Position numbers and translations under genes: made by a program. The notes beneath the pieces are model-generated. The model saw only the letters and a list, made by a program, of their open reading frames with translations, had not been told where the DNA came from and ran no database searches. A DNA stretch of 64,000 nucleotides, taken from assembly GCA_048884965.1 (NCBI GenBank), contig JBHLQH010000001.1, forward strand, positions 32,001-96,000, written 5' to 3'. Below are positions 4,760-44,800 of the stretch, in pieces. This stretch comes from Candidatus Thorarchaeota archaeon (GTDB lineage: Archaea; Asgardarchaeota; Thorarchaeia; Thorarchaeales; Thorarchaeaceae). How positions within the stretch are numbered: the first letter of the stretch is position 1; each line of letters starts with the position of its first letter.

Positions 4760-4832
4760 AATCCATTCTGAGCGTGCAACGACCAAACAGAACGACTAAA
4801 TACACATTCCTCAATGCAGAAGATGGCTTACC

Positions 4833-6928: not shown

Positions 6929-6939
6929 GATGTGATCTT

Positions 6940-8106
6940 GTGAAGCCGGTTCATATCATTGGTGCAGGCATGACCCGCTTTGGCGTCTTGGAAGAATCAA
7001 TCATGAAATTGGTTGAGCAGGCCTCAATGGAAGCGATAAGCACCTCTGGTACTGCTGGAGAGACATTCAATCATGTCCTTGTTTCGTGTCAGAATTCTGA
7101 TGAGTTCACAGGAGTAGGCCATCTTTCAACTCTGACTGCAGATAGACTTGGTCTGATTCCGGCTGGTGCGACACGAATTGAGAGCGGACCATCTTCTGGT
7201 TCAAGCGCTTTTGAGGTGGGTTGTGCAATGATTGCCTCGTCAATGGCAGACCTCGTGCTTGTCGTTGGTGTTGAGAAGATGTCCGAGGTAGAGCGAGGGA
7301 TTGCGTCTCGGATACTTGCCAAGATGATGTCGAACGAGAACGAGACCCAGTATGGTGCGACACCTACTGCGCTAGCAGCTATGATTACGCGACGATATAT
7401 GCACGAGTATGGATTGACTCGTGATGAGCTTTCACTGGTTCCAGTAAAAGCCCACAAGAATGGAACAAAGAACCCTCTGGCACACTTTCAGAAGGAAATT
7501 GATGTTGAGAAGGTTAGCAATGCTAGAATTGTCGCGGATCCCTTGACCCTTTATGATTGTTGCCCGACCTCAGATGGAGCAGCTGCCGTCGTTCTTGCTT
7601 CGCAGAAGATGACAGAAACTCTAGGAGCACACGATGACTCAGTCAAAGTTCTTGGTATTGGTCATGCAACAGATTATCACGCGGTACAACATAGGCGTTC
7701 AATGACTTCCTTCAATGCAACGGTCGAAGCTGCGAAGAGAGCATTTGATATGGCGAACTTGACTCCAGATAGAATCAATGTTTGTGAGATACATGATGCG
7801 TTCTCCATCTTGGAGATTGTGGACATGGAGGACATAGGACTAGTTGATCGAGGAACTGCAATCCAAGCGATAAAGGATGGACGGACTTCTGTTGATGGAG
7901 ATCTTCCTATCAATACGACAGGAGGTCTAAAAGCGCGAGGTCATCCTACTGGAGCTACCGGACTAGCTCAGATTCATGATATCTTTCAACAGCTGACGGG
8001 TACTGCTCCAAAGGAATTGCAGGTAGCGGACCCAGAAATTGGTTTGACCCACAATATTGGTGGATTTGGGAACAATATGGTTGTCGCCATTTTTGCTAAT
8101 CACTAA
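6940..8106 (+). CDS. Thiolase-family protein (archaeal/SCP2-type), catalytic Cys absent
   Basis: GVEKM, NPLAHF, CCPTSDGAAA, EIHDAF, GHPTGATG motifs; ESGPSSG where E.ACASG is usual. Confidence 0.88.
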   Translation: MKPVHIIGAGMTRFGVLEESIMKLVEQASMEAISTSGTAGETFNHVLVSCQNSDEFTGVGHLSTLTADRLGLIPAGATRIESGPSSGSSAFEVGCAMIASSMADLVLVVGVEKMSEVERGIASRILAKMMSNENETQYGATPTALAAMITRRYMHEYGLTRDELSLVPVKAHKNGTKNPLAHFQKEIDVEKVSNARIVADPLTLYDCCPTSDGAAAVVLASQKMTETLGAHDDSVKVLGIGHATDYHAVQHRRSMTSFNATVEAAKRAFDMANLTPDRINVCEIHDAFSILEIVDMEDIGLVDRGTAIQAIKDGRTSVDGDLPINTTGGLKARGHPTGATGLAQIHDIFQQLTGTAPKELQVADPEIGLTHNIGGFGNNMVVAIFANH

Positions 8107-21462: not shown

Positions 21463-22683
21463 CTACTCTTCAATCGCTAGGACAACAGGGGATTCACTTG
21501 TCTTGGGAGCGTCCTTCAGAAATAGTGCTGTAATGGCTGCTAGACCTGATACAACAACCAGGAATACTATTGAGGTAGCTAGTCCATAGACATCTCCAAT
21601 CCATCCAAAAACTGCTGGAGACACTGCTCCAGGAATGGCACCGATTGAGAAGAGGAGTCCGAAAGCAAGTCCTTGCTTTTCAGTTGGAGAAACCTCGGTT
21701 TCAAATGCTTGCCCCGGAGGAACACCAAAGAAGTAGATGAACCCTATTCCGACCAGTACTAGAATGAGAGGTAACGGATCAAGTGAGAGGTTTAGCAATA
21801 AGAACAGAGGGACCATGCTTAGTACTGACAGGAACATATATGGTACTCTACTTCCAGACCTGTCAGAAATTGGAGCAGATACAAGCTCTCCAAAGAGACC
21901 TGCTGTCAACATGATTGCTGTAAGAGACCCTGCCCATACAGGCTCATAGCCATAACTATCAACAAGATAGATTGGCATCATGAGCGTAGTGCATCTGAAT
22001 GGAATACCTCTCAGGCCCATGAATAATATTACGACGAAGAAGTTACGCGTCCAGCCAACCTGTTCCTTTTGCTCATTGTCATTTCCATTGGCGATATCAA
22101 TTCGTGTTTGATTATCGGCGTATCTCATGAGTACGAGAATTGGGAAGAATATGGCAATGCCCATCAGACCAAGTGTGAAGAGAGGTTCTCGCCATCCGCC
22201 AAAGAGAACGAGAAGGGAAACACCAAGGAAGGGGATGATTGCCATTCCAATCAGTCCACCTGCTGCATTGAAGCCAACGGCTTTCGCTCGTGCTGTCTTT
22301 GGGAATTTCGCTGAGATTGCAGGGAATGCGGATGGATGGTAGCCCGAAACTGCCAAACCAAGAGCTATTTGCGTACCTAGAAGGAACACGAAGCTAGTGG
22401 CGAAGCTTTCAACAAGCATCACCAAGCCTGATAGAATGACGCTAACGGATATGAAGAGATCTCGTAGACCTTTATCTCCAAGATATCCTACAATTAGGTG
22501 TGCAGAGGTCATAGTAACGATAACAGCACTAGTAAGAGTGCCTACCTCTGTCAGGGTGAGTGACAACTCATCTCGAATCAGTGGGAGAAATGGAGAGAGA
22601 GCTCCCGTGTACATGTGATTAATTAGATGTGACAATGTACATGCGATGAGCACACCATAGGAAGCCTTGGTTATCTTGGACAA
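21463..22683 (-). CDS. MFS transporter
   Basis: About 12 TM, GYLGDK motif A, YHP; likely TTG start at 22683 with GGAGA RBS (the ORF track extends to 22815). Confidence 0.88.
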   Translation of the reverse strand: MSKITKASYGVLIACTLSHLINHMYTGALSPFLPLIRDELSLTLTEVGTLTSAVIVTMTSAHLIVGYLGDKGLRDLFISVSVILSGLVMLVESFATSFVFLLGTQIALGLAVSGYHPSAFPAISAKFPKTARAKAVGFNAAGGLIGMAIIPFLGVSLLVLFGGWREPLFTLGLMGIAIFFPILVLMRYADNQTRIDIANGNDNEQKEQVGWTRNFFVVILFMGLRGIPFRCTTLMMPIYLVDSYGYEPVWAGSLTAIMLTAGLFGELVSAPISDRSGSRVPYMFLSVLSMVPLFLLLNLSLDPLPLILVLVGIGFIYFFGVPPGQAFETEVSPTEKQGLAFGLLFSIGAIPGAVSPAVFGWIGDVYGLATSIVFLVVVSGLAAITALFLKDAPKTSESPVVLAIEE

Positions 22684-22767
22684 ATCACAATAGTCTCCTG
22701 TGTTGGAGCCAGAGCCAGCACCTGAGATATGTAAATGTGATGATAAGGTCCATATCGAAGACGAATA

Positions 22768-22843
22768 GGGAAAAAGAAGGAAATATGCGGAAAGCTGATG
22801 ACTAGGTAAACCCAATCATCAGCACATCCGACTTCGACTCGGT
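22768..22843 (-). other. Structured intergenic element/terminator with U-rich tail
   Basis: GCTGATGA/TCATCAGC stem (22794-22823) extended by G-U pairs, followed on the minus strand by TTTCC...TTCTTTTT. Confidence 0.5.
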
Positions 22844-22927
22844 TTTTTGTATGTTAGGCTTGTACATCCTCCCTTTTAAACTTCCGAAACAAAGCAATCA
22901 AAGTGTGCAGGGAAGCACAATGGCACT

Positions 22928-24901
22928 CTAGAGAATATCAGAGAGCCAAAGACCAATTCTAAGCGCCAATAAGTCATCATCCAATGAGGCATAATTACCT
23001 CGAATTCCCCAATTATCAATGAAGAAATTGGTTCCAGTTATGACAAGTCTACCTCCTGCATTTCCTTCATAGCATGCAAGTACGGTATGTCCTGAGTAAC
23101 TTGCCAATCGGGTATAGCTTGCATTCGTTATCACAGAAGCACCCAGATAGTCGAAGGAATTTACTCCCGCCGTAATTGCGTGTGCATCTATTGAGGTTAC
23201 TTCGATTACGTTGCCTGTTGCTGGAATCGTGTTCGTAGTCATGGATGCTCCAGTCCACATCAGAAACTCGTTCAGTGATGATATATCCAAGGTTCGGTTG
23301 CTTAGTGCTGTGACAAAGATACCTCCACCATTCATGAAGTACTCTTCGTAAGCGTCTATCTCATCTGGAGTGAAGGGAATTGAGAATCTTGTTGGATTGG
23401 TATAATCAGTCTCATTTGTATCCCATGCGCATGGGTCCAAGAGAAATACTGCATCGAAATTAGACAAGTAGTCACTTGTAAGGTAACTTCTATCTCTAAT
23501 CTCTGTCACAGAAATATCGTTCTCAGAAAAATGAATGTAGAGTTCCTTGAACTGTCCATAGACAGTATCAATTGTCCAAGGAGTATGAGTGATATCAAAG
23601 GCGATTCGTGCTTCTGGACTTCGTGGAGATATATTGATTGCCAAAGAATCGCTTGAGTACTGATCAGCGAAGGTGATGGTTCCAATAATAAGATCTGATG
23701 CTGCAGGAACATGGATAGTGATAGGAACTAGTGCCGTTTGGTTTATCACCATACTTGTTGGCACCTCGACAATATCCTCTGAAATCCCTGATATGGAGAT
23801 ATCAAATATCGCAATGGTCGATGTTGTTATCTCTACCTCAAATGTATAGTTATCACCCAAGAATAGAGTTTCAAAATCCAGTGGTAGGGACTCAACATCG
23901 AGATATGTAAGACGTGGCAGATCATCGTGAATTGCTGCATCATCCAGAACGTTCTTTGATTCTTGTAGATTCGCCTTTCCAGCTCCCACAACATATTCGG
24001 GTTCATCAAGAGGTGTAGCTCCAGCCAGAAGAGCTGCTGTTATCGATCCCGGTGTGTATGAATAATCATTGGCAATGCAATGCTCAATGAGTTCTACAAC
24101 ATATGCTGCAATCTTGGGCGAAGCGAAGCTTGTACCGTAGTATATCGCACTTGTCGTTTCGACATAACCCTCTATTGCGATGTCTGGTTTCATGTACCTT
24201 TCCGCTGTTGGACCCCAACTTGAATAATAGGCTGCGACTCCGTTCTCATCCAAAGCTCCTACTGAGATTACCTTGGAGTAGACGCTTGGAGAGCTTATGC
24301 TTGTTCCTGGAAGGCCAGAATCGCCCTCATTGCCTGCCGCAGATACTACAATAACCCCTCTCGACCAAGCGTACTCAGCAACCGACTCAAGTGGGTCTCC
24401 TACAGTTGGCGAGGAACCAAGGCTAAGATTAATGATGCTGCAGTTTTGCTCAATCGCCCAATAGATTGCCGCGATCAGCGCCTCTGCAGTAGCGTATCCC
24501 GATGAGTCGATGACCTTTGCGACAACGATCCTTGCGCTATCACTATTTTGAACTAATGCACGAGTCACCATGGTGCCATGTCTGACATTATTCCCAGCTC
24601 CATCATCAGGATTCGAATCCGCAGTAGAAGTATCCGTGGTTTCATAGCCATACTGTGGAAGAATGAAACTCCGTTCAGCAACTACTCTCCCTGAAGTGGA
24701 GAAATCTTGGTCAAGTCCTGAATCAACAATTGCGACTCGAATGTTTCCATCAGTTGTAGGATTGATATTGAATGGAATGAGCTGGAAAATCGCAACTATT
24801 CCTGTTGAGATGACGATCAGTAAAATGATAATTACTGCAGCAATCTTTGTTCCAGTAGATTTAGTGGATTGCTCAGGTGGTGTATCCCAGTATAAGGCCA
24901 T
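22928..24901 (-). CDS. Membrane-anchored S8 subtilase with Ig-like and GATase-like (GldG/IFT52-type) C-terminal domains
   Basis: Triad IVDSG, RHGT, GTSFAS; oxyanion AAGNEG; N-terminal TM; C-terminal RIAFDITH...GGRLVITG. Confidence 0.9.
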   Translation of the reverse strand: MALYWDTPPEQSTKSTGTKIAAVIIILLIVISTGIVAIFQLIPFNINPTTDGNIRVAIVDSGLDQDFSTSGRVVAERSFILPQYGYETTDTSTADSNPDDGAGNNVRHGTMVTRALVQNSDSARIVVAKVIDSSGYATAEALIAAIYWAIEQNCSIINLSLGSSPTVGDPLESVAEYAWSRGVIVVSAAGNEGDSGLPGTSISSPSVYSKVISVGALDENGVAAYYSSWGPTAERYMKPDIAIEGYVETTSAIYYGTSFASPKIAAYVVELIEHCIANDYSYTPGSITAALLAGATPLDEPEYVVGAGKANLQESKNVLDDAAIHDDLPRLTYLDVESLPLDFETLFLGDNYTFEVEITTSTIAIFDISISGISEDIVEVPTSMVINQTALVPITIHVPAASDLIIGTITFADQYSSDSLAINISPRSPEARIAFDITHTPWTIDTVYGQFKELYIHFSENDISVTEIRDRSYLTSDYLSNFDAVFLLDPCAWDTNETDYTNPTRFSIPFTPDEIDAYEEYFMNGGGIFVTALSNRTLDISSLNEFLMWTGASMTTNTIPATGNVIEVTSIDAHAITAGVNSFDYLGASVITNASYTRLASYSGHTVLACYEGNAGGRLVITGTNFFIDNWGIRGNYASLDDDLLALRIGLWLSDIL

Positions 24902-25121
24902 GGTGATTCCTCAATGAATTGTCTATCCCGTCAAGGAGCCCAATCTAGGAAGATTGATGAACTTGTCGAACACGGAATTCGTACTCTTGAAGACTTATTA
25001 AGAAGCTTCAAAAGGTATTCCATCCATTCATCTAGTAGCTAGTGGTACGGAAGGGTTGATTACAAGATTATTTATCAATGCCAAATCATGCAAGCATAGT
25101 ATACTTTGTGAGGTACTGACA

Positions 25122-28073
25122 TTGTCTGAACAGCATTCCACCATTGTTGATGAATCAAAGATTATGAAATATCATGCGATGACTTCAGACGAAGTTCTTC
25201 AGGCTTTGTCAGTGAATCCTGAAATAGGTCTCACAGATGAAGAGATTCGGTCACGACAGGCGCAATACGGTCCTAATCAGATTCCGAAAATCAAAGGATC
25301 AATTTGGAAGATCTATATAGCTCCTATTCTTAACTGGCTGATTACAATCTACCTGCTCAGCTCTTTCGCCCTTGTTTTCCTAGCCCTCGCCTTTCCTACA
25401 GATCAATCACAGCTTGGTCAGGCGATATTCTGGCTGGCAATTGTTGCAGTGAATGCTATTGTCGCCATTTTCCAGCAGTATCGCGCACAGAAGAAATTAG
25501 AAGCTTTGGAAAAACTCTCTGCAGGTGATGCAAGAGTACTTCGAAATGGTGAGGAAACAACCATCGACCCTGTAGAAATCGTGCCTGGTGATGTCCTGAA
25601 ACTTGAGCAAGGGGATCGAATCCCTGCGGATGGCAGGATTATTACAAGTTCAAATCTATCAGCAAATGAAGCTTCTCTCACTGGTGAGAGTGTTCCGGTT
25701 GTCAAGAGTGCCTCATCACTTGCAGAAGATGGTGCTCCACTGACAGATATGCATAATATGCTCTTCTTTGGCACATACATTTCCACAGGAGTCGCAAAGG
25801 TTGTTGCCACTACTATTGGTGGATCAACCGAGATAGGGAAGATACAGGGCACCCTTGAGGAGCTAAATACTGGTGATATTCCCTTGAGAAAGAAGGTCAA
25901 TCTACTTGCAAAATATCTAGGGATTGCCGCTTTGGTTTTGATGTTTATTTCCATAACATGGGCAATTTTCTTTAGTCCATTGTTTACGGGTTCTGCAGGC
26001 ATTTCTGAATTCGACGCAATTATTGATACCATTGCAGCAGGGATAACAAAAGCAATGACCATCATGCCAATTAACATCCCTCTCCTAACAACAATTGTTC
26101 TCCTAACTGGCGTTCTGGCAATGGCAAAACGTGGTGTGATTATTCGTGATCTATCGGCAGTAGAAAGTCTAGGTCGGGTTAGTGTGATTTGCTCAGACAA
26201 GACTGGCACAATGACGAAGAATGAGATGATGGTTGAATATATCTGGGATACTGAGCGTCTTTACACTATTACTGGTGATGGATACGAACCTCGTGGGGAA
26301 ATATTGAAGCTGAAAGCAAATGCAAATAGTGAGGATTTGAGCTTGGAAAACGCTTCGCCCCTAGTTGGAGTCGAATCATATGATAATTTGAGGTTACTCC
26401 TTCTTTGTGGAGGGATCAATAATGATTCCGCACTTAGTGTAAAGGAGATTCCCGGTCAGGGCTTATCATATATCCCAATAGGTGATCCAACTGATGCAGC
26501 TCTTCTTACGTTATTCAGAAAGAGTGGTATTGATGAGGTAGAAGCAAAGGAGAAGTATCCCATAGTAATGGACTTTCCATTCGATTCTCAATTGAAGCGG
26601 ATGTCGAAAATCACTGGGTCTGAAACAAAGTATGTTCTATTCACTAAAGGCGCAACAGAGGTAGTGTTACCTCGTTGCACGCATTTCAATAATTCTGGAA
26701 AATCTGCAATCATAAACGATCCCATGATTAAGCAGATCACCACGCTCACTGAAGGTTTTGCATCCAAGGGATATCGAGTAATCTCACTTGCATATCGCTC
26801 GATGGATGATTTGCCATCAACTCATCATTTACGGGATGAGGTGGAGAAGAATCTTGTCTATCTAGGGTTTGCATGCATTGTTGACCCACCCAGAGATGGA
26901 GTCAAGGAAGCTGTGGATGAATGTCACAGTGCGGGAATTAATGTTATTATGATCACTGGTGATGCAGCTGCGACAGCGCAGACGATTGCGAAGAATTTGA
27001 ATATCTATGAGGAAAATTCTATTGCTGTCGAAGGTGGCGAAATTGGTACGCTTTCTGATGATGATTTCGCACGAGTCAATGTATTTGCCCGAGTCAATCC
27101 TGAGCACAAGCAGATAATCGTTGAACGATATCAGGATCAGCGAAAGGTTGTCGCAATGACAGGCGACGGCGTGAATGACGCTCTAGCTCTTGCAATGAGT
27201 GATGCAGGGATTGCGATGGGTATCACAGGGACCGATGTAGCGAAGGAAGCTGCTGATCTTGTAATCACAGATGATAGCTTCTCATCCATCGTCACTGGGG
27301 TTCATGAAGGTCGTGGTCTTTTCAACAAAATTAGAATGATGGTCTTCTTCTATATTGCCATCAACCTTTTCGAATCAGTGATTTTCTTTGGTGCACTTTT
27401 CCTCTTACCAGCAGGGTTCAATATGCTCACATCGTGGCAAAGTCTGCTTCTAGTAGCGACGACCCATTCTTTCCCCGGACTCGCGCTTGTCTTTGACAAA
27501 ACCTCACCAAGGGCAATGGAAGAGAAACCTCGTGATAGTGAGGATATAATAACGCGAAAACTCGCTAAGTTCATGGCAATTGGTGTTTTCCTAATGGTCA
27601 TTGGTGCTGCTATCGTTTACACTCTTGCTTTCAACGCTCAGCCTGGTGACCTCCTCTATGCTGTGCCTGAGAACCTCACTGGGTGGTATAATGAAGCATC
27701 AACTACTTTACCTGATGATTGGACCATTCAAACTGCAAAAGCTACGACTATGTTACTTACAATCATACTGATTTTTGAAAGCACTTTGGTGCTTATTATC
27801 AGAAGAATAAATCTGCCCTTCCACAAGTCAGTTTCTGAACCTGGTATAATCAGGTATGTTGTCTTGCTGGGTTTGATAGTCCTTGCATTCCTACTCTTAA
27901 TGTACGTCCCAGTGGCTCAGGAGATACTTGTAGGAGCCTTACCTGGATTTGAATTCTACTTCCTCCCCCTCACCACACTTGATTGGACGATTTGCATTCT
28001 CGCTACGCTTCCTGCGTTGATTGCACTTGAGGCATACAAAGCATCGTATCGAAGACGAGGAGAGCCACTATAG
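25122..28073 (+). CDS. P-type ATPase (P2A/SERCA-like scaffold, atypical transport site)
   Basis: TGES, DKTGT, KGA, DPPR, MITGD, TGDGVND motifs, about 10 TM; likely TTG start at 25122 with GAGGT RBS. Confidence 0.93.
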   Translation: MSEQHSTIVDESKIMKYHAMTSDEVLQALSVNPEIGLTDEEIRSRQAQYGPNQIPKIKGSIWKIYIAPILNWLITIYLLSSFALVFLALAFPTDQSQLGQAIFWLAIVAVNAIVAIFQQYRAQKKLEALEKLSAGDARVLRNGEETTIDPVEIVPGDVLKLEQGDRIPADGRIITSSNLSANEASLTGESVPVVKSASSLAEDGAPLTDMHNMLFFGTYISTGVAKVVATTIGGSTEIGKIQGTLEELNTGDIPLRKKVNLLAKYLGIAALVLMFISITWAIFFSPLFTGSAGISEFDAIIDTIAAGITKAMTIMPINIPLLTTIVLLTGVLAMAKRGVIIRDLSAVESLGRVSVICSDKTGTMTKNEMMVEYIWDTERLYTITGDGYEPRGEILKLKANANSEDLSLENASPLVGVESYDNLRLLLLCGGINNDSALSVKEIPGQGLSYIPIGDPTDAALLTLFRKSGIDEVEAKEKYPIVMDFPFDSQLKRMSKITGSETKYVLFTKGATEVVLPRCTHFNNSGKSAIINDPMIKQITTLTEGFASKGYRVISLAYRSMDDLPSTHHLRDEVEKNLVYLGFACIVDPPRDGVKEAVDECHSAGINVIMITGDAAATAQTIAKNLNIYEENSIAVEGGEIGTLSDDDFARVNVFARVNPEHKQIIVERYQDQRKVVAMTGDGVNDALALAMSDAGIAMGITGTDVAKEAADLVITDDSFSSIVTGVHEGRGLFNKIRMMVFFYIAINLFESVIFFGALFLLPAGFNMLTSWQSLLLVATTHSFPGLALVFDKTSPRAMEEKPRDSEDIITRKLAKFMAIGVFLMVIGAAIVYTLAFNAQPGDLLYAVPENLTGWYNEASTTLPDDWTIQTAKATTMLLTIILIFESTLVLIIRRINLPFHKSVSEPGIIRYVVLLGLIVLAFLLLMYVPVAQEILVGALPGFEFYFLPLTTLDWTICILATLPALIALEAYKASYRRRGEPL

Positions 28074-28090: not shown

Positions 28091-30046
28091 GTGATGATTC
28101 TGCAATTTGTTCTTCTAGATGATCCATTCTGGCCCCTTCTCATAGCATTGGCAATATTCCTACTTGTCGTTGGAAGCTTCATCAAGCTTCAGACTCGGAA
28201 ACGGGATGGAATGGTCGAGCAAATCAATCAACTACTGCTATCAAGACCATCTGTGTCCTTAACGGAGCTTATTCACCACCTTGACACAAAACGCATGGAC
28301 CGAAAAACTCTGACTGGGCTCATTCAAAGATCCAATGCCGCAATTATGAGTTTCTCGAAGACTTCAGTCATATCTTCAATTCTTCTGAGTGCACGATTAA
28401 AGGAGAATCTCGTGAACAATTCGATTATTTATGTTGACAAGGAAGCCAACCGCTGGGATGTTGCTCCAAATGAGATTGAACGAATTGTGGGGGATATCAG
28501 CCAGCGAGAGGGTCTTGATGTTCTTCTTACTAAAGATGGCGATTATCTACTAGTTCCGGATTTGAAAGATCGAATACGTGAGTCTCTGGAATTACAGGGG
28601 CGAGCTGACATTATCGCTGAATCTCAGAGATTGCGTGTTGATGTTGATGAGTTGGTTCAACTTGTTAGGAGTTGGGGTTGGTATGTTTGGCAATCTTCAG
28701 CAGGTTCCCTCTACTCAGTAAAATGGCTTCTTGATACTCTTGAAAGAAGTGTTGCACGAACCGGATACCTGGATCTTGATACAGAATCCACACGGTTAGA
28801 TTTGACGCCAAATGATATCATGAGGGTTGTTAGTCTCTACAAGTGGGATTTTGTAGAAGCATTTGACAATCGAATAATCCCTGCGCATCTACTTCAAGAG
28901 CAATTGCTATCACGTCTTGAACGATTCGGATCTTTGAACATAAATGAAGAAGCTAACAGATTAAAGATCTCTCCTGAGGGATTACAGCGAGTACTAAAGA
29001 AGCTGGGACTCACTCTTATTACCACGCATGATGGATCCGTTATGACACTTGAGCAGATTAGGCAGGAATTGCTTGATGATGCTGATCTTGCAGGTATTAT
29101 CTCTGCTGAGGAATCTGCTGGAAGACTTGGAATCGAGGAGGGCCTAGCGAGTAGAATTCTTGGGAATCATTCAGGTGTGAGAAAACTAAAGGACGGCCGA
29201 TATGCTTCCTATCGCGCTCTCAGGAGCTACATCTTGGAAGAAGTAAGGAAGACTGGAATCATCTATACAGATAAAATGGAGAAAGATTGGCTAGTGAATC
29301 GAATTGAGCTGGCTGCTCTTTTAAAACGATTTGGACTTAAGATCACTCTTACAAAGTCAGGGAACTACCTCTCGATATCGTGGCTTCGGAGAAGGTTGGG
29401 AGATTCATTACAGGTCGGAGAGGCACTCAATCCAAGTGAGCTGGCACAACGATACGATACTGAGATTAATGTCATCGAATCAATTGTCGCAACCATCCAG
29501 ACAGACACACTGATCGATGGAGAGGGAATGATGATATCTCGGAATGCTCTATACAATGAATTGGAATCCCAATTCCACAATATGGGAATTCTTCGTCCAT
29601 ATACTATTGCATCAGAGAGGGGATTAGACATTGCAGATATCCAGAAGACCCTCCAACCTCTTACATCTGCATCATTTAGGACCGAAGAAGATGCAATGGT
29701 AAGCAAGATTTGGCTTCTGAGGAAGATACAGGAAGCATTGAAGCAGAAAGGTATCTTTGACCTTACGACTCTGTGTGAAGGCATGCAACTGAATTATGAC
29801 ATAGTCCATTCTGAGATTGAATCTCGTTTGTCTGAAGACGACAGGCTACTGGAGAGCTGTGGTGTGATTGTTGCAGCAAAGTGGATCGCTATTCTAAAGA
29901 ATCTCGCAAAGGAGGAGGGCTCTATAGATGTGACAAAGTTTGCCGCCTCTCAAGACATTCCCAAAAAATCTGCACTCTGTGTTCTTCGAGCACTCCTACA
30001 GGGGGTATATCTTCCATCTAATGATAGCTATTTCACAAAGACCTAA
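28091..30046 (+). CDS. TM-anchored tandem winged-helix protein, UFL1/DDRGK1-like
   Basis: N-terminal TM, then about 11 units of about 57 aa (G.h.h...A..L.h....h...h + beta-hairpin T.DG.Yh); resembles the UFL1 N-terminal region as recalled. Confidence 0.7.
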   Translation: MMILQFVLLDDPFWPLLIALAIFLLVVGSFIKLQTRKRDGMVEQINQLLLSRPSVSLTELIHHLDTKRMDRKTLTGLIQRSNAAIMSFSKTSVISSILLSARLKENLVNNSIIYVDKEANRWDVAPNEIERIVGDISQREGLDVLLTKDGDYLLVPDLKDRIRESLELQGRADIIAESQRLRVDVDELVQLVRSWGWYVWQSSAGSLYSVKWLLDTLERSVARTGYLDLDTESTRLDLTPNDIMRVVSLYKWDFVEAFDNRIIPAHLLQEQLLSRLERFGSLNINEEANRLKISPEGLQRVLKKLGLTLITTHDGSVMTLEQIRQELLDDADLAGIISAEESAGRLGIEEGLASRILGNHSGVRKLKDGRYASYRALRSYILEEVRKTGIIYTDKMEKDWLVNRIELAALLKRFGLKITLTKSGNYLSISWLRRRLGDSLQVGEALNPSELAQRYDTEINVIESIVATIQTDTLIDGEGMMISRNALYNELESQFHNMGILRPYTIASERGLDIADIQKTLQPLTSASFRTEEDAMVSKIWLLRKIQEALKQKGIFDLTTLCEGMQLNYDIVHSEIESRLSEDDRLLESCGVIVAAKWIAILKNLAKEEGSIDVTKFAASQDIPKKSALCVLRALLQGVYLPSNDSYFTKT

Positions 30047-32843: not shown

Positions 32844-35800
32844 CTACTCTTCCATACTTCTGTCCATCTGCTCTAGGACAGCATCAAGCTCGGCTCTGGT
32901 CATATCCTTCGCGCTCTCAAGAACTTCCTCGATCTGCTCCTTAGGAAGACCTAGCTTAGCAAGTCGCTCACCTACTTCTTGGAGTTCTTCAGCCGTCACC
33001 TTTCTTGTAGCATCTGCTTTCTCAGGTCTCTTCTCGGCAATCTCTTGAGCTCTCCTCGCCCTCTCTTGCTTGATGACCTCATTAAGGAACCCAGGTCTCT
33101 CACTAGGCTTCATTCTTGCAAGATCAGTTCGAAATGCTGCAATATCATCTTCGCCAAGTCCAGTAATTTCAGCAAGCTCCAAGAGAAGTGCTTCTGTTTC
33201 GGGTACATGGAATTCGATGGTCAACATTGGTATCTCATCGATTGGCTTAGAGATGTTGATTGCGTTGAGGCCCTCATTGATGATTCCTTGAATCATGAGG
33301 TTTCTCTCTCGAACTTCTGGTTTTTCAGGAACTTTCGCCTTTGAAAGCGACTTGATCATTCCATTCATGATTCGGATGAGTTTTGGCACACTGTACACCT
33401 TCACCCAGAGCAAGGCTCCAATGAGTGCCAAGATGATGCCAAAGCTACCGCCAAACATAACAATCGTCATGAGTGGATCCGCTGGTGGTGCAGTCACTAT
33501 AACTGTGAAAGCAAGAGTGAGTTGCTCGTAATTCTGACCATTTGAGGCATGAATTACAATTTCGAACTCTCCAGCAGATGGAACTATGAATCCTATGATG
33601 TACTGTCCAGCCGCCTCACCAGGCATCACAGAATAATCACTCTCACCTATGACACCTGTTGCTTGTGTTAGGTAGATATCTGCATCAGTTATTGGTAAGT
33701 TGTGGTCAAGATCCCAATACTCGATCACAATCTGTAGGTATTCTCCACTTAATGCAGTTGCAAAAGTGTTCCCTGACTGAGTTCTGAGATCAGTATCTAT
33801 AGGACGAATTATGATAGTGATTATTGTTGATACACGTGCATAGTTCTCCTTGTTGACTACGATAGTCGCATCGTACGATCCAAGTATTGCTGTGTTTGGT
33901 ATCTCGAAGGTATAGTTACCTGGATTCTCAGAATCCTCTACAAGCACTGCGCCTAGTGCCCATAGGACACTACCATCCGCTCCTGTCACAGGTCTGCCAT
34001 AGACTGTATCATTGATATAGACACTGGCAATCATGGTATCTCCGACAGGAACTTGAATGACATTCAGCACGATGATTTCCATTGTAATCGAACGTACTTG
34101 TAGGGTTGCAGATGTCGTCCTTGTGATGTAGTTGCTCTTTGTTGCTGTCACACGGATGTCGAATGAGGACGGAGCTACCTCAGTACTATCAAGTAGTACT
34201 TTGTAGATACCATTTCCTACCTCTTCCAACACACCAGAGCCGCCTGTCCATACGTACTGGAGAGTGGCATTCTCGATTGGCACCTCATTGTGGACGTCAT
34301 AGTAGCTAAAGAACATCCAGATGGACTGCTCATAGAAGATTGACAACGTTGCGTTCAGGGGTTGAACAGTTGTATCTATTCTCTGTACCTCGAATAGCAT
34401 AGAGAGAGTCGATGTTTCATAGCCCGCTTTGGTCGCAACTATGTACATGCTGAATGTTCCAGCGTACAAGTCTGAAGTAGTCAGTGTGATGTTGTATATG
34501 CCATTACCTTCCTCTACCAATGTTCCGTTGTAATCCGCATCACTGAATCTGAAGACCACTGATGCGCCAAGGATAGGTAGACTCAGGTCAATATTCGAAT
34601 AATTGACCCTAAGCACAACACTTTCACCGAATATAACCCTCAGAGTAGCTTCTCCAATTGGGTTTAGGTCGGTTTCCACAAGTCCAATGTCTAGACTAAA
34701 GTAGATACTTGCTTCAACGTGATTTGATTTGTTGGCTCGTACATATAGGGTGTAGACATTGATATTCACATCGGTTGTATCGATGAATGCTGAATAGTAT
34801 CCAGTCTGGGATGTTGCAGTCAATGTGCCGCTACGTTCACCATCACCAGGGTCCCATCGGTATTCGACTGTCGCCCCTGTAATCGGTCCGAACGCCAAGG
34901 ATTCGAAGTATACCGTGATATTGACAGATTGACCACTAACGACCGAGTATGCATAGATTTCATTCAAGCTTGAGAAATCTGTTTCTAGAACTGAAACAAC
35001 TACAGTAACTTGAATGATTCTTGCCTCGAAATTACTCTTGTTTGCGGTTATTGTGACAATATAGGTTCCAGCCTTAATAATTGAGGAATCAATTGATACG
35101 GTGTAGTTGAGCGCATATTCATCAAATGCGAATTCCATTCCTGAGATAGTAGCTTTGATATCAGCTCCAACAACCATACCACCGAGATCTAAGTTGTCAT
35201 AGTATACGGAGATGTCAATGGTTTCACTCCAATTTAGCTGAATCAATGACGTTTCTGTTGTGAGTTCCGTTCTTGTCTGTCGAAGAACTAGATCGACGAT
35301 CATTGATGCGGATGTATATCTAGTGCGTGTTGCAGTAATGTCATAGGAGTACGTTCCAGCAGGTTGTTGCCAGAGGAAGTAAGTAATATTATATTCTCCA
35401 CCACCCAGCTCTGCGATGGAATACGTACCACCTGGTGCGGTCGTGAATATGGTCGCGCCAGTAATGCCTGTATTATGATCGAGATCTTCGTAGGTGATTA
35501 TCACACTTACATTACTTCCTGCAACAACATTTCCTGCGAAGCTTGCAGAGATTGCAGTTTGAATCCTTCGAACCTCAAACTTCACAGAAGTAGTAGCAGA
35601 TGAATACCCTGTTTTAGTGACTGTAAAGGATACAATATAGTTGACTAGGTTTGTTACACTGGCGGTATAGAGGGTGACACTGAATCCATCCCCCGGAATC
35701 ACTGCCCACGACCATCCATATGGCCAATTGGTGCCAATCGATGCTCCTGTAATGTTGAGAGAATGGTCAGTATCAAAGTAGATAATTGTTACAGCAACTG

Positions 35801-38800
35801 TATCTCCTACTGGAACGACTGATGGATCAGGAGATGATGCAATAGCACTTGTACTGATTAGTCTAATAGTGATGTAGATAGTTGCCGTCTTTGTCAAGTA
35901 GAACGACTTGTTGAATGTGAACTGAGCACTGATTTTACCTGTGGTTGTCACCCACGAAGTATCCAAGGTAATGTTGAATATTCCATTTCCAAGAATTTCG
36001 TATGACCAATACCCGCCTGGCCACGTCGATGATATCGAAGCTCCGAGAATAATCTCCTCATGATCCAAATCATAAAATGTAATGTTCACTAAGGTCGAGT
36101 CTCCAATTGGGACCGTTCCTGGATCGGGAGCGTCTGCCAGTGTTTGAGTGAAGATGCTTCGGATCACAGCTCTGATAATTGTACCATTTGCATCTGGATA
36201 GAATGGTAGTCCTCCACTCCATGTGATGTCAATCTCGAAGTATAGTGCTCCAGTGGTCAAGAATGGAGTGCTATTGATAGTGAACACTATCTTGCCATCT
36301 TCTGGATTCGTGATCGATACTTGGAATGGACCTCCTGGAGTTGTGTTCAGGGGTGTGATATAGGCGTGTACATAGGTATCATTTGCAATACCTGCTCCGG
36401 TGGAGCTGTCTCTGTACCAGACTACGATGACAATGTCATCTCCGATAGGAATTTGGTCAGGAGGCTCATATGAGAGAACTGAACCTGCCCCTGTGATCGT
36501 CACGACGAATTCTATGGTTTGATTCTCGAAGTATGGCTTTCCATTGATCCAAATGAATGAAGCCTCAAATGCAAAATCACCGGTGGATCCAAGTGAGGTG
36601 GCATTGACTAGGACCTGATAAACTCCTGGTGAAGTCTGTGTAATCCACCAATCTACACTCCTATTCAGAGATACTTGCACACCTCCAAGGACTGTATCAT
36701 TGAATATTCCAGTGCTGCTGTCCAAGTCGATGTATCTGAACACAATCGTGATGTTGCTTGTGTAACTTGTTTGGGCGATCGGGTTAATGGTAAGCTGTGT
36801 ATTCCTAGCTCGGATATCCGCATCGATCACTAGGGATTGATCGTCATATCTGTAGGTAGGGTCTCCTGCAACCGATATAGTCAGATTGTATCTTCCGAAA
36901 ATACCGAATTTTGTTGTGTTGATGTGCAGATGATATGTTGCTCCCGAGATGTATTCAATCCAGTAGTAGCTCGAATCAACGGCGGTTCCGTTTACGGCAT
37001 CCAAGGAGAAGAATGCAACAGAGGTTGATATTGCCAGAAGTCCTGCATCTACATCGTAGTACTTTAGAATCACCGTCAAATTGTCACCAAATGGTGTTTC
37101 TTGAGGTGGTGTGTATGTCAATCTAGTCGCTCTTTCTCTTACTTCTACTTGCAGTGATCTTGTCTTGTTCTGATAGAAGGGCTCTCCAGACGATGAGATC
37201 TGTGCAACCAATGAGAATGTATCAACATCTCCAAGAGCACTAGAATCGACTTCGGCAATATACTCACCATTTCCGAGATCAGTAATCCAGTAGTTAGTGT
37301 TCAGAACTAAAGACTCTGCGGCTCCTGCACAGCTAAGTGTGATAGTACTACCAGTGATTCCTGAGGCGGTTATAGTATCTTCAAATGTGAAACTTATCGT
37401 TACATTATCTAGATATGGTGCAGCTCCCTCGACATCATAAGATAGTTGTGTTGGCCTTGCAGTTACTCTTCCAGTCACTGAACGGGGTCCAGCATCCGAC
37501 CAATAGTCTGGTGCATTGAAGGAAACCTGCATCGTATAATCAGTAAGCTGATTCAGAATGCTTGTGTCAAAGCTCACATTGTATTGTCCACTACCGATCT
37601 CAAGCACATTGACTGATGCAGTAGAAAGTCCGGATGGTGTAACGAAGGTAAGTACGATATACGAAATCATTCCCTCAAGTCCTGTGCCATCCGTTCCGTT
37701 ATCGATATCGAGAATTGTAACTATAAAGAAGGAAACCTCATCATAGTATGTAGAATCGGGTGAAGTAGTGCTTAGCTCAACCGATCGATATGCAACTTTC
37801 AGATTGATGCTACGTAGACTATCAGATAACCACCAATCTGTCGAATTGACCTTCAAGCTCAAAACATATGTTGCAGGTGCTCCAAGAGCACTAGTGTCAA
37901 TTTTTACTTCATAGACACCATTGCCCAAGTATGTAACCCAGTAGTTGGCGTCCTTTTCAAGTGTTTCAATGGAGGTTCCACATGAAAGATAGACATTGCC
38001 TGAGGCTATGGCAACTGGAATCGCTCCTTCAATATCGTTGTATGTTACATTGAAGAATGTGAAGTTGCCATAGGGTGTAGCTGGTATTGCCTCGTAATCA
38101 AGGGATGTGACTCGATCTCTAACGCTTCCGGTGATATTCCTTGAAAGTACGCTGTAGTATGGTGAAGATCCAGAGTGGTCGAATTTTATGGTTATTTTGT
38201 AAGAACTGACCATTCCAAGTATCGTTGTGTTGAAAGTGATCCTATACTGTCCGTCACTTCCTAGTACAAAGGATATGATTGGATTGTCACCGATACTAGG
38301 AATCACGAAGGTTGCAGAAATGTATGATTCATTATTGTTGATGAATTCTCCCGTCACACTATCCTGTAATGTTATGTAGAAGGTACTGTTCTCAAGATAT
38401 GCTGTTACATCAGGGAAGTCAATCTCCAGTGTAGCGACTTTCATGTTTATTGTAAGTATCGCAGATACTGCAGTCTGATTCTCGAAGAATGGACTTCCAC
38501 TCCACATAACCGTCATGTTGATACGGACTATTCCCAAGAGACCCGTTCCATCTGTGACGACATATACCTCATAGAAGCCGCCAACGGGAGTTGGATTCAC
38601 TTCGTAGGTGAGTCCATTCAGAACCGAAATAGTCAAACTGCCTCCAGTAATCAATTCGCTATTGTTGTCGAGATCGACATATTTCAGTAGAATCGTTGCA
38701 TTCTCGCCATAGAATACAGGATCCACTACGATCTGCGGAATGGCAGTATCACGCATTCGAACTGTGATGGAAATCAACTTGCTTACTTGATCTTCGTAGT

Positions 38801-41800
38801 ATGGTGCAAGACCTGGATCTGTCCAGTTGATTGTGATCCTGAAGTTGTAGGTAGCATAGGTATCTAGATAGCTAGTGTTCAACAGTAAGAAGAAGGTTGC
38901 ATATCCATTCACGTCATTTCCTTGAACGATTCGAAGAATGGCTATGTCTCCTGTATCTAGTCCGGGTTGAGTTACTGATACTACGGTAATGGCGGTGTTA
39001 ACTCCTATTTCACAATCCACTGGAACTCCTGCATCGAGGTCTCCCCAGTAGAATGTGACGTTGGCACGGTCTCCGTATGGTACGGGATCACTTGGATCCC
39101 ATACGAACTCGGTAGAAGTACCAGTAATCTGGAATCTGATTGAGATTGAGTGGTTCTGATAGTATGGGGCTCCAATGAAGGTCATATTGATCTGAACATT
39201 GGTGTAAGTGAAAGCGATGAATTGATCCGCATCCATCGTGACTACATAGGATCCTGCAGCAGCTCCTTCTGATACTAAGTAATTTGTTTGATTCACTGTG
39301 AGGAAGAGATTCTGTGTGCTGTTAGTTATAGGTGCATTTGCAAGATCTGTATCACTGAAGTAAAGCGTGATCGTCACCTGATCTGTGTATCCAACTGTTC
39401 CAACGGGGTCATATGAGAGTAAGGTATAACGCTCACGAACATACACTCGTACGTAGATCGAAGCATCCTGATAGTTTGGATACGTTCCGGCGTTCTGAGT
39501 TGAAAGCTGCACCCAATAGGTTCCTGGTTTGATGAATGCTGTTGTGTTGATACGTACTTCATAGAGATTTCCTCCTACTTCAGCGATGGACCAGAATCCT
39601 GTGAGACTTGCATTTACAACAATGATAGACGCACCGTTGATTGCAAGACTTGTGTCTAGGTCATAGTATGTCAGCTGGAATGTTGTATTTAGACCGAATC
39701 CTGTTCTTGCAGATGGCTCGGTGAGCTGCAATTCAGTCGAATGCTTCCTGATTGAAACTGTGATTTTGATTACTTTAGAGTCGTAGAATGGAGAGGTGTA
39801 GTCATAGCTTATGTTCAGGTAGACATAATGAGTGCCTATAGCAAGTGTGTTTTCTATGCTAACGCTATAGGTGTCAGATCCGGGTGTCCAAGTAACTGAA
39901 ATTCCCAGAAGATTGGGGTCAGAAATACTTACACCTCCGAATTGGATTCTGACAGCTCCTGTTGAGTTCATTACATCGGCTGCAGTTTCTCCATCTGTAA
40001 CATGTACTACTACTTCAACATCCTCTTCGAATGCTATATTCCCAACAGGATCGTATGTTGCAACAATAGCTCGGTAGAGAACTCGTAGTGTGAACTGAAC
40101 TTGTGCATTGTTCTCAAAACGCACGCCGGTGTAGGTCATCTGAGCTGTAATTGAATATGTTCCAGGCTTTAGGAAAGCAGTAGTATTCAGTACAACGTCA
40201 TATGTCCCATCACCATTATCTATGATAGTGTAATTACCTGTGAGAGTCAGTCCCGCACTCGTCAAAGTAAGAGTGTTCCCGAACATCGTTGTATGTTCAT
40301 CATCAATTAGATCATAGTAGGTAAATGTCATGGTGACATTTGAGCTGAAGTAGGTTGGTGATGCAGGGGTGTATTGTAATTGAGTGGGTCTTGTAGTTAT
40401 AGTCAAGGATACCAGTCTGGTCTGATTCTGGTAGAACGGAGCACCAATCCAAGTCACGTTCAACTGCAGATATACAGTACCAGTTGTACCAACAGATGAA
40501 GTATCTACAATCACCGTCCAAGTTCCTGAATCGTACTCAAGCCAATATGTCAACCCTGGATTGTTAAGTTGCACAAACAGCTGGGTCGAGTTCAGTATCT
40601 TTGTATTAGTGGGTGAATCAAAGTATGAAAATGAGAGTGTCGCATTCTCGTCAAACGCAGTGTTTTGAGGTGGAGTGACATCGACAAGAGTTGTTCTGTA
40701 GAGTATTGTCACTGTAAGGGAAAGTGTCTGATTCTCATTGTATGGTGCTGCAGTTGGAGTCCAATTCAAGTAGACCTTGATTGTATACGATCCATCTGCT
40801 CCAAACAACGAGGAATTCAGCTCGAAGCGATATAGTCCACCACCTACGGTAGTGATCTTGAAATCAGATGTATCGATTGAAGTTCCAAGAACAAAAGCAA
40901 AGGCGTATACATCGCTTGTATCATTCTCCACGCCCTCTGAGGCTTGTGTCATCTCATAGTATAAGGTGAAGTTGATGAAATCACCATAGTATACCGCCTG
41001 AGGAGCTATTGATACGCTTAGGTCCGTATCAGTACCTTGCAGCTCTACCGAGAATGTACGATACAAGCTCTCATATTTCGCGACTCCAGTCCAATTGAAG
41101 AAGACAGTAAAGGACATGGTGAATATTCCGCCAAATTGATCTGCTGGGATTTTAACAATGTAGTGTCCTGTTCCCAGTGCAAGGTTGTCACTAACAAAGA
41201 AGATAGCCCATCCAGTGGTCGAATTCGGGAATGTGTAGGAAACCGATACTGCAATTTCTTGAGTGACATTGGAAATGCCCGATCCAACAGTAATATCCTC
41301 GTAGAACAGATAAACTGAGATATTCGAACCAATGTCTGTTGGAACCACTGCCTCATCGAATGAGAGGAATGAATCATGTGTGATTACAACAATGACTATG
41401 ATCACATACGCATCCTCATATCCAGATTTGGTGAAATTAATTCGAATTGGATACGAGCCTAATACTGTAGAGTCAATTGTTTCTAGCGTGAATTCATAGA
41501 CTCCGGTAACAGATGATGTATTTGAAATGGTCAAGGTCGAATTGGATAGGATGGTATCTGCGTTGATTCCAACACTGTGATCTACATCAGAATATTGAAC
41601 TGTGAACACTATGTTTGTCCCAAGAGGTACATTAAATCGATACCCTGAGGCTATGGCCTCTGTATCTGTAACTCTGATTCTGAACCTTACTGTCGTAGAA
41701 GCGTCCTCATAGTTCGTTCTTTGCATTGTGAGGATGACAATATTGTCACCAAGTGATAGGCTTGTTGTGACCATTGTAATCCTGTAGTAGCCTTCACTAA

Positions 41801-44800
41801 TCCACATCACTGTGAAGTCAGTATCCTCGACGAGATCTGTTCCATTGAGAAGGATTGTCGAAGCATTTACCAGTACTCCACCTAGGTCTCTGTCCCTGAA
41901 TTGCGCATAGAAGATAAGAGTGTCACCTGAGGGTACGGGATCCGGAGTGGGAGCATAGGACTCAGTGTATCTCTCTCTGATATCAATGGTAACACTTCCA
42001 GCAGAATTTGAGTAGAATTTTGTAGGTCCTGAACCCGAAGTAGTAACACTGATTGTTCTTGTGTAAGTGCCAATGGACCAATCATCAGTGGTGAGATTCA
42101 CGGAAAAGACTCCACCGGCATAGATCCAGTTTGCTGATGTGAACACTTGTCCTCCAATGACGATCTGAGTGATATTGGTCTCACCAATAATCAGTGATGC
42201 ATTATTCAGATCTTGTATCGTAATCGAGATTGCTGTATTGTCAGAATAGGGTGTTGCTGGTGGTCTTGTAGCTAGTACTGATAATCCATGGCTTACAACC
42301 TGTATCAATACTGTGGAGGCACTGTTCTGATAGTACTTGTATCCTAAGGATGATGTTGTTAATGAAAGGGAATAGAAGGCGGTGCCGATGCTCCACTCTG
42401 AAGTGTCAAGTGCACAGATGTATGTACCTGCATCGAATGTCCAATTGGCAGATGTGAAGGTCTGACCTGCAATGATCACTTGAGATACATTGCCTTCATT
42501 GATGGACAGACTAGTATTGTCAAGGTCAATCAAAGAGAATGAAATATTTGTCTTCCAACTCCATGGAGTAGCAGATGGGGTTGTTACAGTTATGCCTATG
42601 AGATGTGCTCGAATCTCGATTGTTACACTGCTAGTTCGATCATTGTACATCTTGATTGGTGCTATTGCAGTGGTAACCGCAACTGCATACGAACCTGTAC
42701 CTATCACCCAATCACTGGTATCTACAACAACTGTGAAGACTCCTGCAGAGTAGCTCCATGATGATGAAGTGAATACATACCCTGCGACCACTATCTGTGT
42801 GATGTTTGCTTCATTGACGATGAATGATTCATTATCCAGATCGATGATTGTGATATCTAGAGTCGTCTTCCAGCTCCAAGGAGTTGCTGCAGGACGGTCG
42901 ACTGATACCGATAGGATATGCCTTCGAACTTGAATTGTTAATGTACTAACACCATTGAAATAATACTTAATGGGTGTTGAGCTTGTTGTTACACTGACTT
43001 GTAGTACTGTGGTTCCTATATTCCAAGAAGAGGAATCTACAATCACATAGAATGTCCCATCTGAATATACCCATTCTGAGGAAGTGTAGATGACACCTCC
43101 TATGGTGATCTGCGTGATATTCGCCTGCGAAATATCTAATGTGGAGTTATCGCCATCAATCAATGTGATTGAAACATTGGTCTTCCAACTCCATGGTGTT
43201 GCAGATGAAGTAGTTGCTGAAACTACCATGGAGTGTGCCTTGATCGTAATTAGAACACTTCCTGATCTATCATTATAGTATCGTGCCGGTGTATCCAAGC
43301 AGTTTACTGATACCACATAGGAATTGCTAGAAATGGTCCATGATGAAGTATCCACGAAGAAGCTGAAAACGCCGTCATTGTATGTCCAATCCGCAGACGT
43401 GAAGACTTGCCCGTCCACAATGATTTCAGTTACATTGCTAGGATTAACCGTCAAGGTTGAATTATCAAGATCTGTCAACGAAACTGTAACATTCGTCTTC
43501 CATCCCCAAGGAGTCTGTCCAACGGGATTTGCAGTGATACCAATGTCATGTGATCGAATCACGATTTGTGCAGCACCCAAGCCATCATCGAAATACTTGG
43601 ACAAACCTGAGCCTGCGCTTGTGACAGTTATTGTGACCGAGTAGGTTCCCACATCCCAGCTTCGCGTGTCCATCCAAAATGCTATGGATGCTACACCTGT
43701 ACTGTCATCGTAAGTCCAGTTAGCACTTGCATATAGATAGGTTCCGTAAATTGAGCTTATCTCCACTGTGCTAATGTTTCCTTGTGATATGATTATAGAT
43801 GAATTGTCTGTGTCAACAAAAGAAATGTTCATCCAAGTTCTCCAACCCCATGGAGTTTCACTGGGTGGAATGGATGAAACTCGAGTATGATGTGCTCTTA
43901 CTGTGACAGTGAGTTCAAGATTCTTTTCTTGATGCCCAGTTGCAGATGCTTGAATGAGAATCGTGTATTCACCAGGAGTCACACTTTCTGTGTTGAAGGT
44001 TACTTGCCAGATATCAAGAGATGAATTATATGTTGGACCACTCTGAGTTCCCACAACTGTTTGAGCTGGCCAGTTGGAAGTGATTGAGATGTCTGGTGCT
44101 GTATTATCAATAGGTCTGTTTGCAACAAAATCGAAGAGATCGATGCTATAGCTAAATGCGCTACTATGAGAGGCATCAATCCTGGCTTTGATAACTCCTG
44201 AGCCATCTATGAAGTGACTTGGATTTGTAGTTCTCCAAGTAAGTGTTGTATCGATTATTGGATGGTAGTCGCTAATGATTTCGACCCATGATGTAGATGT
44301 TACATTGTAGGCGTAGACAGAGCCAGACGTGATGGTCGTACTGAATTTTCCTTCAATCTTGAAAGTAAGTGTACTGATATCACCTACAGCAAAGTTGTAT
44401 GGGTCTATATCAGTGGTAAGAGTAACAGAGATTTGATTTCCCACACTAGAAACAACTGTATAGACATTATTTGATGTGAACGTATTGGTTTCATCTGGTG
44501 ATGCTGGACTTCCAGGACTTGCAGAGATTCCATCAGGATTCATTGCGATAGTGTCTTCATACGCGATATAGATTGTCTTTGAGTTTCCCCACGCAATTTC
44601 ATAGTCTGTGGTTGGAGTCTGTAGATTCTTGGGTGAGTATAGGGTTGTCTTTTCCTGAATCTCAATAGTAATACCTGAAGTTTCTGCGTAATCGTAGTAT
44701 GATTTGGTGGCATTGATATTAACTGAATATCCTCCGATCACCGCGAGTGAAGTATCCACATATCCTGCGTACCATCCATTTCCAGCATATCCCATATTAT

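Follow-up and report, generated by a model that had tools for sequence, protein, structure and literature searches.

The side chains at the positions of E309 in transmembrane helix 4 (TM4) and of N796 and D800 in TM6 of SERCA are textbook determinants of the cargo of a P-type ATPase. Pumps with other residues at some of these positions have been described. The fungal P2D pump NcENA1, which has been examined by mutagenesis, works without the carboxylates of E309 and D800, its corresponding segments reading IPASL, ENIAQ and TSGLPD (PMC10779151). The CtpE-type pumps, proposed as a separate bacterial family P6, keep the PEGL motif in TM4 and have Ile at the position of the TM6 Asp, and the review of the field that describes them expects more prokaryotic P-type ATPase families (PMC10654040). 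In Asgard archaea, a transporter survey listed a putative Ca2+ ATPase for each of its five proteomes and took it as support for Ca2+ signalling (PMC7997004). Here we analyse a P-type ATPase gene (positions 25122–28073, + strand) on a 64,000-nucleotide stretch of the Candidatus Thorarchaeota archaeon assembly GCA_048884965.1 (contig JBHLQH010000001.1, positions 32,001–96,000; hereafter the window, whose numbering is used throughout). The gene belongs to a strongly conserved, deep, largely Asgard-archaeal clade, separate from the clade of canonical PEGL-type pumps, in which all three positions are rewritten. Judged from its residues, the encoded protein is probably a single-site cation pump, neither a two-Ca2+ pump nor a flippase (probability roughly 0.75).

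The gene is an uninterrupted open frame whose translation of 983 amino acids is identical to a protein already in the public record, found by database search. Pfam recognises Cation_ATPase_N, E1-E2_ATPase, Cation_ATPase, Hydrolase and Cation_ATPase_C domains. The cytoplasmic catalytic motifs, all on the + strand, are complete. Translation and homologue alignment place the dephosphorylation motif TGES of the A domain at residues 187–190 (25680–25691), and DKTGT, with the phosphorylated Asp359, occupies residues 359–363 (26196–26210) and is invariant in the family alignment. KGA (509), DPPR (588) and TGD (612) follow, and the hinge GDGVND (residues 681–686; 27162–27179) is continued by ALAL instead of APAL. 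With these motifs intact and strongly conserved, the pump looks active, as an earlier reading of the DNA (hereafter the original prediction) had proposed. The same alignment located the membrane motifs. TM4 reads PINIP (residues 316–320; 26067–26081, + strand), with I317 in place of SERCA E309 and N318 in place of G310; TM5 reads INLFE (747–751; 27360–27374, +), with N748 and E751 for N768 and E771; TM6 reads VATTHSFP (778–785; 27453–27476, +), with V778 for N796 and H782 for D800; and TM8 reads IFE (884–886; 27771–27779, +), with E886 for E908. HMMER alignment to the Listeria pump LMCA1 set IMPINIPLL over AIPEALSSI and LLLVATTHSFP over LFINLVNDSLP. The departures from the Ca2+-pump consensus, E to I and G to N in TM4 and N to V and D to H in TM6, therefore hold by alignment and not by eye alone. 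The codons given in the original prediction for Ile317 (26070), Asp359 (26196) and His782 (27465) are exact, as is the distance of 42 residues between Ile317 and Asp359, and the retention of the TM5 Asn and Glu and of the TM8 Glu, which it had also noted, stands. What had been observed in this pump is confirmed; what had been made of it is supported in part, as set out below.

The altered site is a property of a family. All 120 closest homologues (61–83% identity; from Thorarchaeota or Promethearchaeota where named) carry IMPINIP, including at the place where the original prediction had considered that close relatives might read PEGL, and nearly all carry TTHSFP in TM6 and an INLFE-like TM5. 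A sequencing error or private mutation is ruled out by the presence of IMPINIP in 121 of 121 sequences of 61–100% identity. In a search of 1.84 billion cluster representatives, about 30 further clusters (50% identity), down to ~33% identity to the query, carried the signature P-[IVFWL]-N-[ILF]-P together with the TM6 His (hereafter the PxNxP/His family), and the next-best matches were ordinary pumps with PEGL and N..TD. The query lies inside the PxNxP/His clade with starred support and carries the full TM4, TM5, TM6 and TM8 signature.

Residue counts were compared between 31 representatives of the family and 99 PEGL-type pumps. The first Pro of TM4, counted in the family only, is present in 31/31. 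The E309 position is aliphatic or aromatic in all 31 (E in 98/99 PEGL-type pumps), the G310 position is Asn in 28/31 (G in 92/99), and the D800 position is His in 30/31 (D in 91/99). The N796 position, Asn in 96/99 PEGL-type pumps, is Y, F, V, I, T or A in the family. In TM5, the N768 position is Asn in 27/31 and the E771 position Glu in 31/31 (90/99 in PEGL-type pumps); in TM8, the E908 position is Glu in 29/31 family members (Q in 54 and E in 36 PEGL-type pumps). Changes extend beyond the cavity. A TM1 Gln conserved in 93/99 PEGL-type pumps is Pro in the family, and a TM2 Glu of the cytoplasmic entry region, present in 99/99, is Gln; we take these two positions to be Q56 and E109 of SERCA. 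The residue after GDGVND-A is Leu in 26/31 family members and Pro in 97/99 PEGL-type pumps.

By equivalence with SERCA, the side chains of Ca2+ site II (E309 to I, V, F or W; N796 to a hydrophobic residue) and the Asp shared between the two sites (D800 to His) appear to be gone from the family. Those of site I would be kept, N748, E751 and E886 standing for N768, E771 and E908, and the family-specific N318 and H782 would complete a polar cluster that occupies SERCA site I and the middle of the cavity. The original prediction of a pump that had lost Ca2+ site II and moves another substrate is borne out as far as the replaced ligands and a cargo other than two Ca2+ are concerned, which we consider likely; its suggestion of a lipid cargo is not (see below). 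The pump probably carries a small cation other than calcium. In the cycle that we propose, one small cation would enter the Glu-Glu-His-Asn-Asn site from the cytoplasmic side in E1, Asp359 would be phosphorylated, the ion would be released outside in E2P, protons on the Glu/His cluster would be carried back as counter-ions, and dephosphorylation would be catalysed by TGES. Divided among substrates, our expectation falls first, and tentatively, on a transition metal, then on Na+ or K+, then on some cargo outside this list, then on H+, and last on Ca2+ or Mg2+.

One of two arguments on the substrate concerns the His. It is invariant in 30 of 31 representatives beside an N796 position that varies freely, and this pattern argues for a chemical role, as metal ligand or proton carrier, rather than for mere removal of charge; such a role would speak for H+ or for a transition metal like Mn2+, Fe2+ or Zn2+. 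An exporter of divalent transition metals (Mn2+, Fe2+, Zn2+, Co2+ or Ni2+) might bind its ion through His782, Glu751 and Glu886 with Asn318, Asn748 or water, and counter-transport two protons. A constant His beside two carboxylate and two amide side chains makes up a typical N/O site for metals, and the two carboxylates would neutralise a 2+ ion. Metal transporters of the ZIP, CDF and P1B-4 kinds typically use sites built from His, Glu and Asn. The other metal pumps of the host genome are both of the CPC type, and export of Mn or Fe is not obviously covered by them. Our preference for a metal nevertheless stays tentative: no metal-binding tail, chaperone or metal regulator was found near the pump in six gene contexts, no NiCo or Mn riboswitch was found upstream, the distribution of the family is near-universal and housekeeping-like rather than island-like, and we know of no P2- or P3-like pump with such a site.

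We asked how profile models classify the pump. The P-type superfamily model TIGR01494 was passed (267.8 bits, cut-off 62.3), whereas every subfamily model scored below its cut-off, in the order P2A > P2D > P2B > P2C > P3A > P3B > P5 > P1B > P4. The best scores were those of Ca2+ pumps, 460.8 bits with the PMR1-type model TIGR01522 (cut-off 798.3) and 419.8 bits with the SERCA-type model TIGR01116 (cut-off 703.4); other family members scored 396–541 bits on the P2A models. The closest solved structures by sequence were likewise LMCA1 (404 bits), SPCA1 (350) and SERCA (344), followed by Na,K-ATPase. These matches, together with the database label of the family, 'Ca2+-transporting ATPase', would suit a pump for Ca2+ (or Mg2+) with one remodelled site, and single-site Ca2+ pumps (LMCA1, SPCA, PMCA) exist. 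However, the known single-site Ca2+ pumps keep site II (E309, N796, D800), exactly what the family has lost, all Ca2+-pump models stay far below their cut-offs, and the host genome already has two canonical PEGL pumps. We regard Ca2+ or Mg2+ as an unlikely cargo.

The P2D model TIGR01523 ranked second as a group and aligned end to end in a single stretch (residues 16–978; 398.6 bits), raising the possibility of an efflux pump for Na+ (or K+) like the ENA/P2D pumps of fungi and protists, in which the ion would be exchanged for protons on the Glu/His cluster. In ENA, too, neither E309 nor D800 has a carboxylate counterpart, and the TM5 Asn, the T799 equivalent and the TM8 Glu are retained (PMC10779151). 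This parallel, the loss of net negative charge, the entry region included, and the housekeeping-like distribution in Asgard archaea, free of a metal-resistance context, together favour Na+ or K+. We take Asgard archaea to be largely sediment-dwelling, which is counted on the same side. The P2D score nevertheless falls short of its cut-off (645) and of the P2A scores, and the representative search returned no ENA-like sequences intermediate between the family and PEGL pumps. An invariant His would not be expected to coordinate an alkali cation, and ENA has Ser at that position. We therefore hold Na+ or K+ to be a possible cargo, after a transition metal.

A hydrophobic E309 position is not peculiar to lipid flippases. 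The original prediction had called Ile at this position the hallmark of P4 pumps (PISL); however, five of five archaeal P3A pumps above the TIGR01647 cut-off read P-V-A-[LQ]-P with TGES, and the fungal ENA reads IPASL. The aliphatic residue between two prolines, as in the PVALP or PVAQP of archaeal P3A pumps, and a cavity with few acidic residues and one ionisable base would be compatible with a proton pump, in which a Glu-His pair hydrogen-bonded to Asn could serve as acceptor and donor, by analogy with Asp684, Asn106 and Arg655 of the plant P3A pumps. The P3A model TIGR01647 gave 322.7 bits (cut-off 615.5), and the pump has neither a TM6 Asp nor a TM5 Arg, residues represented by DD and R in the archaeal P3A references. 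True P3A pumps (TIGR01647 up to 1077 bits; L135–L138) occur in 45 of the 301 genomes of the phylum that we sampled and share genomes with the PxNxP/His family (for example G041, G058, G174 and G034), and the trees described below do not join the family to P3. H+ is a doubtful cargo on these grounds.

That the pump flips lipids, or is an evolutionary intermediate towards P4 (or P5), has in its favour the hydrophobic E309 position, as in P4 PISL, and the Asgard host. On the P4 model TIGR01652, the query scored 108.5 bits, the family 86–126 and PEGL pumps 75–103 (cut-off 431), and on the P5 model the family scored 198–240 against 248–274 for PEGL pumps; the P4 and P5 models thus favour the family no more than they favour PEGL pumps. 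The A domain of the query and of its close homologues reads TGES and not the P4-type DGET, as the original prediction had itself noted, and P4 pumps carry an extra Asp in this motif (PMC10654040). The hinge is GDGVND, and the conserved, buried Glu751 and Glu886 fit a cation site and not a lipid groove. No Cdc50-like or other conserved partner adjoins the pump in six neighbourhoods, a negative that covers adjacent genes, no genome-wide search having been made. Fold comparison points the same way. An AlphaFold model built on the family alignment (predicted local distance difference test score 81.9, predicted template-modelling score 0.72) has TM4 unwound at residues 315–317, a helix break common to all P-type pumps. 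Its 50 best Foldseek matches were SERCA1a/2b, SPCA1, LMCA1 and Na,K- and H,K-ATPases (template-modelling scores 0.6–0.77; 0.70–0.77 over ~1000 aligned columns for SERCA1a/2b and SPCA1), and there was no P4 pump among the 50. We conclude that the protein is an intact E1-E2 ATPase with a SERCA-like fold and ten-helix architecture. Profiles, TGES motif, buried Glu pair and fold matches all fail to support the proposed passage from P2 to P4, and we consider the flippase reading very improbable.

The pump and its family were placed in phylogenies. A FastTree phylogeny of 65 sequences set the PEGL clade apart from the family with a starred support of 99. Two IQ-TREE phylogenies with posterior mean site frequencies (PMSF) additionally included an MgtA-like pump, three P2C-like pumps and archaeal P3A pumps above the TIGR01647 cut-off, were rooted on the host genome's own P1B pumps, and contained no eukaryotic P2D, P4 or P5 sequences. 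In both, a branch with starred support of 97–99 united the PEGL, P2C-like and P3 pumps without the family. That the family branches so deeply in the free trees, which hold no eukaryotic P4 or P5 sequences, and apart from the P2A, P2C and P3 pumps sampled, is the further point that can be counted for an intermediate towards the flippases. A topology grouping the family with PEGL and P2C pumps against P3 and P1B was not rejected by the approximately unbiased test (p 0.53), and for this reason we do not claim that the family lies outside P2. What can safely be said is that these sequences branch deeply, at the base of the P2/P3 radiation or close to it, and are not nested in the Ca2+-pump clade.

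To the extent that sources are named, the family comes from Thor-, Odin-, Hel- and Promethearchaeota, with one metagenome-assembled genome labelled Korarchaeota; the neighbourhood of the pump in the latter holds an Arf/Ras-family GTPase gene, which suggests that its label may be unreliable. In the phylum sample (301 genomes, 30 taxonomic families), matches at E ≤ 1e-100 were found in 271 genomes. Matches at E ≤ 1e-180, a range reached by members of the PxNxP/His family only, were found in ~210 (hand count), in 13 of the 30 taxonomic families. Taxonomic families with weaker matches alone could hold the most distant subgroup, that with PFNFP or PWNFP. The host genome (4.09 Mb, 99 contigs) encodes five P-type ATPases, and the other four are two canonical pumps with AIPEGLP and NLxTD and two CPC heavy-metal pumps. 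Since PEGL and CPC pumps are present beside it, the altered pump is one more, specialised paralogue rather than a Ca2+ pump in decay. Na,K-ATPase-like P2C pumps (L139–L142), with PEGLQ or PEALQ, HNWAE and AIDxGIDIIPS, occur in at least two taxonomic families of the phylum, one without strong matches to the PxNxP/His family (f19) and one with them (f13). A contig scan on the universal motifs DKTGT and GDGVND returned 80 loci of ordinary P2 pumps from many phyla, which were uninformative on the taxonomy of the family.

Two arrangements of P-type ATPase genes were seen in passing. On contig C86 of genome G025 (1223–7486), two family members stand in tandem, each 46% identical to the query. The representative search also returned natural fusions of two P-type ATPases of 1500–1700 amino acids (P0161, P0164, P0200 and others); P0161 consists of an HMA_2 domain, a first E1-E2/hydrolase unit with a C-P-x membrane motif, and then a complete P2-like unit (residues 782–1676).

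Several points weigh against the single-site cation pump, or leave its cargo hard to name. The function proposed for the family members is a prediction from sequence, and the spatial clustering of the five site residues derives from their SERCA equivalence. The T799 equivalent varies within the family (T 8, V 8, A 5, S 4), and because it is not conserved the ion site cannot be described simply as site I kept. A His ligand would be unusual for Na+ or K+, and His-based transition-metal sites are, to our knowledge, not known on P2- or P3-type scaffolds. The presence of the family and of bona fide P3A pumps together in many genomes weakly disfavours H+. Gene context is no help on the substrate: across six neighbourhoods the pump has no conserved neighbour that codes for a metal regulator, a chaperone or an ion-related function, and Rfam models found sub-threshold noise only, and no riboswitch (NiCo, Mn), in the region upstream.

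The start codon of the pump gene is a TTG at 25122. A ribosome-binding-like GAGGT (25110–25114, + strand) stands 7 nt 5′ of it, its GAGG being conserved across five upstream regions, and a TATA-like box, ATTTATCAAT (25070–25079, +), is conserved as a block when the upstream regions of five related genomes are aligned and may serve as the promoter element of the gene. Both elements are kept in four related genomes, and their conserved positions ahead of the TTG support this start; an alternative, longer open reading frame from 25056 would begin 5′ of the TATA-like box. Two more blocks conserved in relatives, GAACTTGTCGAA and AAGCTTCAAAAGG, lie further 5′ (24950–25020, +) and could be operators or could form the promoter from which the divergent protease gene is read.

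That gene encodes an S8 subtilase of 657 amino acids (22928–24901) and is accompanied by a major facilitator superfamily transporter gene, the pair spanning 21463–24901 on the − strand. On the other side, 17 bases 3′ of the pump, lies an open reading frame of 651 amino acids (28091–30046, +) with an N-terminal hydrophobic membrane anchor followed by repeats and a weak UFL1-like match (E3_UFM1_ligase, PF09743, 2.6e-7). The whole arrangement is kept in CP070761.1, a complete genome of the phylum, whose pump, named Thorarchaeota, is 63% identical and whose pump stop codon overlaps the start of the next gene. Of 30 genomes from the taxonomic family of the host, only 12 have the 651-amino-acid gene next to the pump, and beside more distant members it is absent. 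An obligatory partnership is rejected for the family as a whole on this count, and the gene is a lineage-specific neighbour, not part of the pump. Elsewhere in the window, a giant open reading frame of 4603 amino acids (32844–46655, −) had no Pfam match at E ≤ 1e-5.

A whole clade has thus rewritten the E309, N796 and D800 positions while the catalytic machinery stays. About two thirds of the genomes sampled from the phylum carry such a gene, which is housekeeping-like and coexists with canonical Ca2+ pumps. The label 'Ca2+-transporting ATPase' is probably wrong for the PxNxP/His family. The Asgard transporter survey (PMC7997004), which places the P2-like pumps of these archaea under a putative Ca2+-ATPase, and a paper on endoplasmic reticulum calcium carry no discussion of the altered site, and we found no publication on the clade or its site, although overlap with the uncharacterised P-ATPase families of TCDB is possible. 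Once the substrate is defined, the P-type repertoire would gain a new design of ion site, and inferences on the ion homeostasis of the archaea most closely related to eukaryotes would be corrected. We speculate, as a bolder and distinctly less probable proposal than the single-site cation pump itself, that the PxNxP/His pumps are a lineage of the rank of P6 that arose at or before the P2/P3 split, is almost confined to Asgard archaea, and carries in its His-Glu-Glu-Asn site a cargo new to the SERCA-like scaffold, for example Fe2+ or Mn2+.

Set against described systems, the pump resembles most closely the P2A pumps (Listeria LMCA1, 6zhf/6zhh; human SPCA1; SERCA1/2), which are its best sequence, profile and fold matches and with which it shares the complete set of catalytic motifs, the cation-ATPase domains at both termini, the Asn and Glu of TM5 and the Glu of TM8. 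It differs in that the PEGL, N796, D800, entry Glu and APAL of P2A are replaced by PINIP, a hydrophobic residue, His, Gln and ALAL, respectively, and the family falls below the P2A cut-offs and outside the PEGL clade. With the P2D ENA pumps of fungi, mosses and protists it shares a SERCA-like scaffold, non-acidic residues in place of both E309 and D800, and retention of the TM5 Asn and TM8 Glu. A343, S856, N819 and the TM8 Glu of WELVDMRRS in NcENA1 (PMC10779151) correspond to I317, H782, N748 and E886 here. ENA has Ala and Ser in TM4, Ser at the D800 position and the additional D860 and D892, whereas the pump has Ile and Asn in TM4 and His in TM6, and we read the resemblance as one of pattern and logic and not of shown ancestry. 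Archaeal P3A pumps, like the plant AHA2 and fungal Pma1, share TGES, an aliphatic E309 position between two prolines and few acidic residues in the cavity, but measure ~820 amino acids, whereas this pump has 983 and a SERCA-like C-terminal half. P6, finally, offers a parallel as a prokaryotic lineage outside P1–P5 in which the TM6 Asp has been lost on a Ca2+-pump-like scaffold; P6 is bacterial, whereas the PxNxP/His family is Asgard-archaeal, changes both TM4 and TM6, and places a His in the site.

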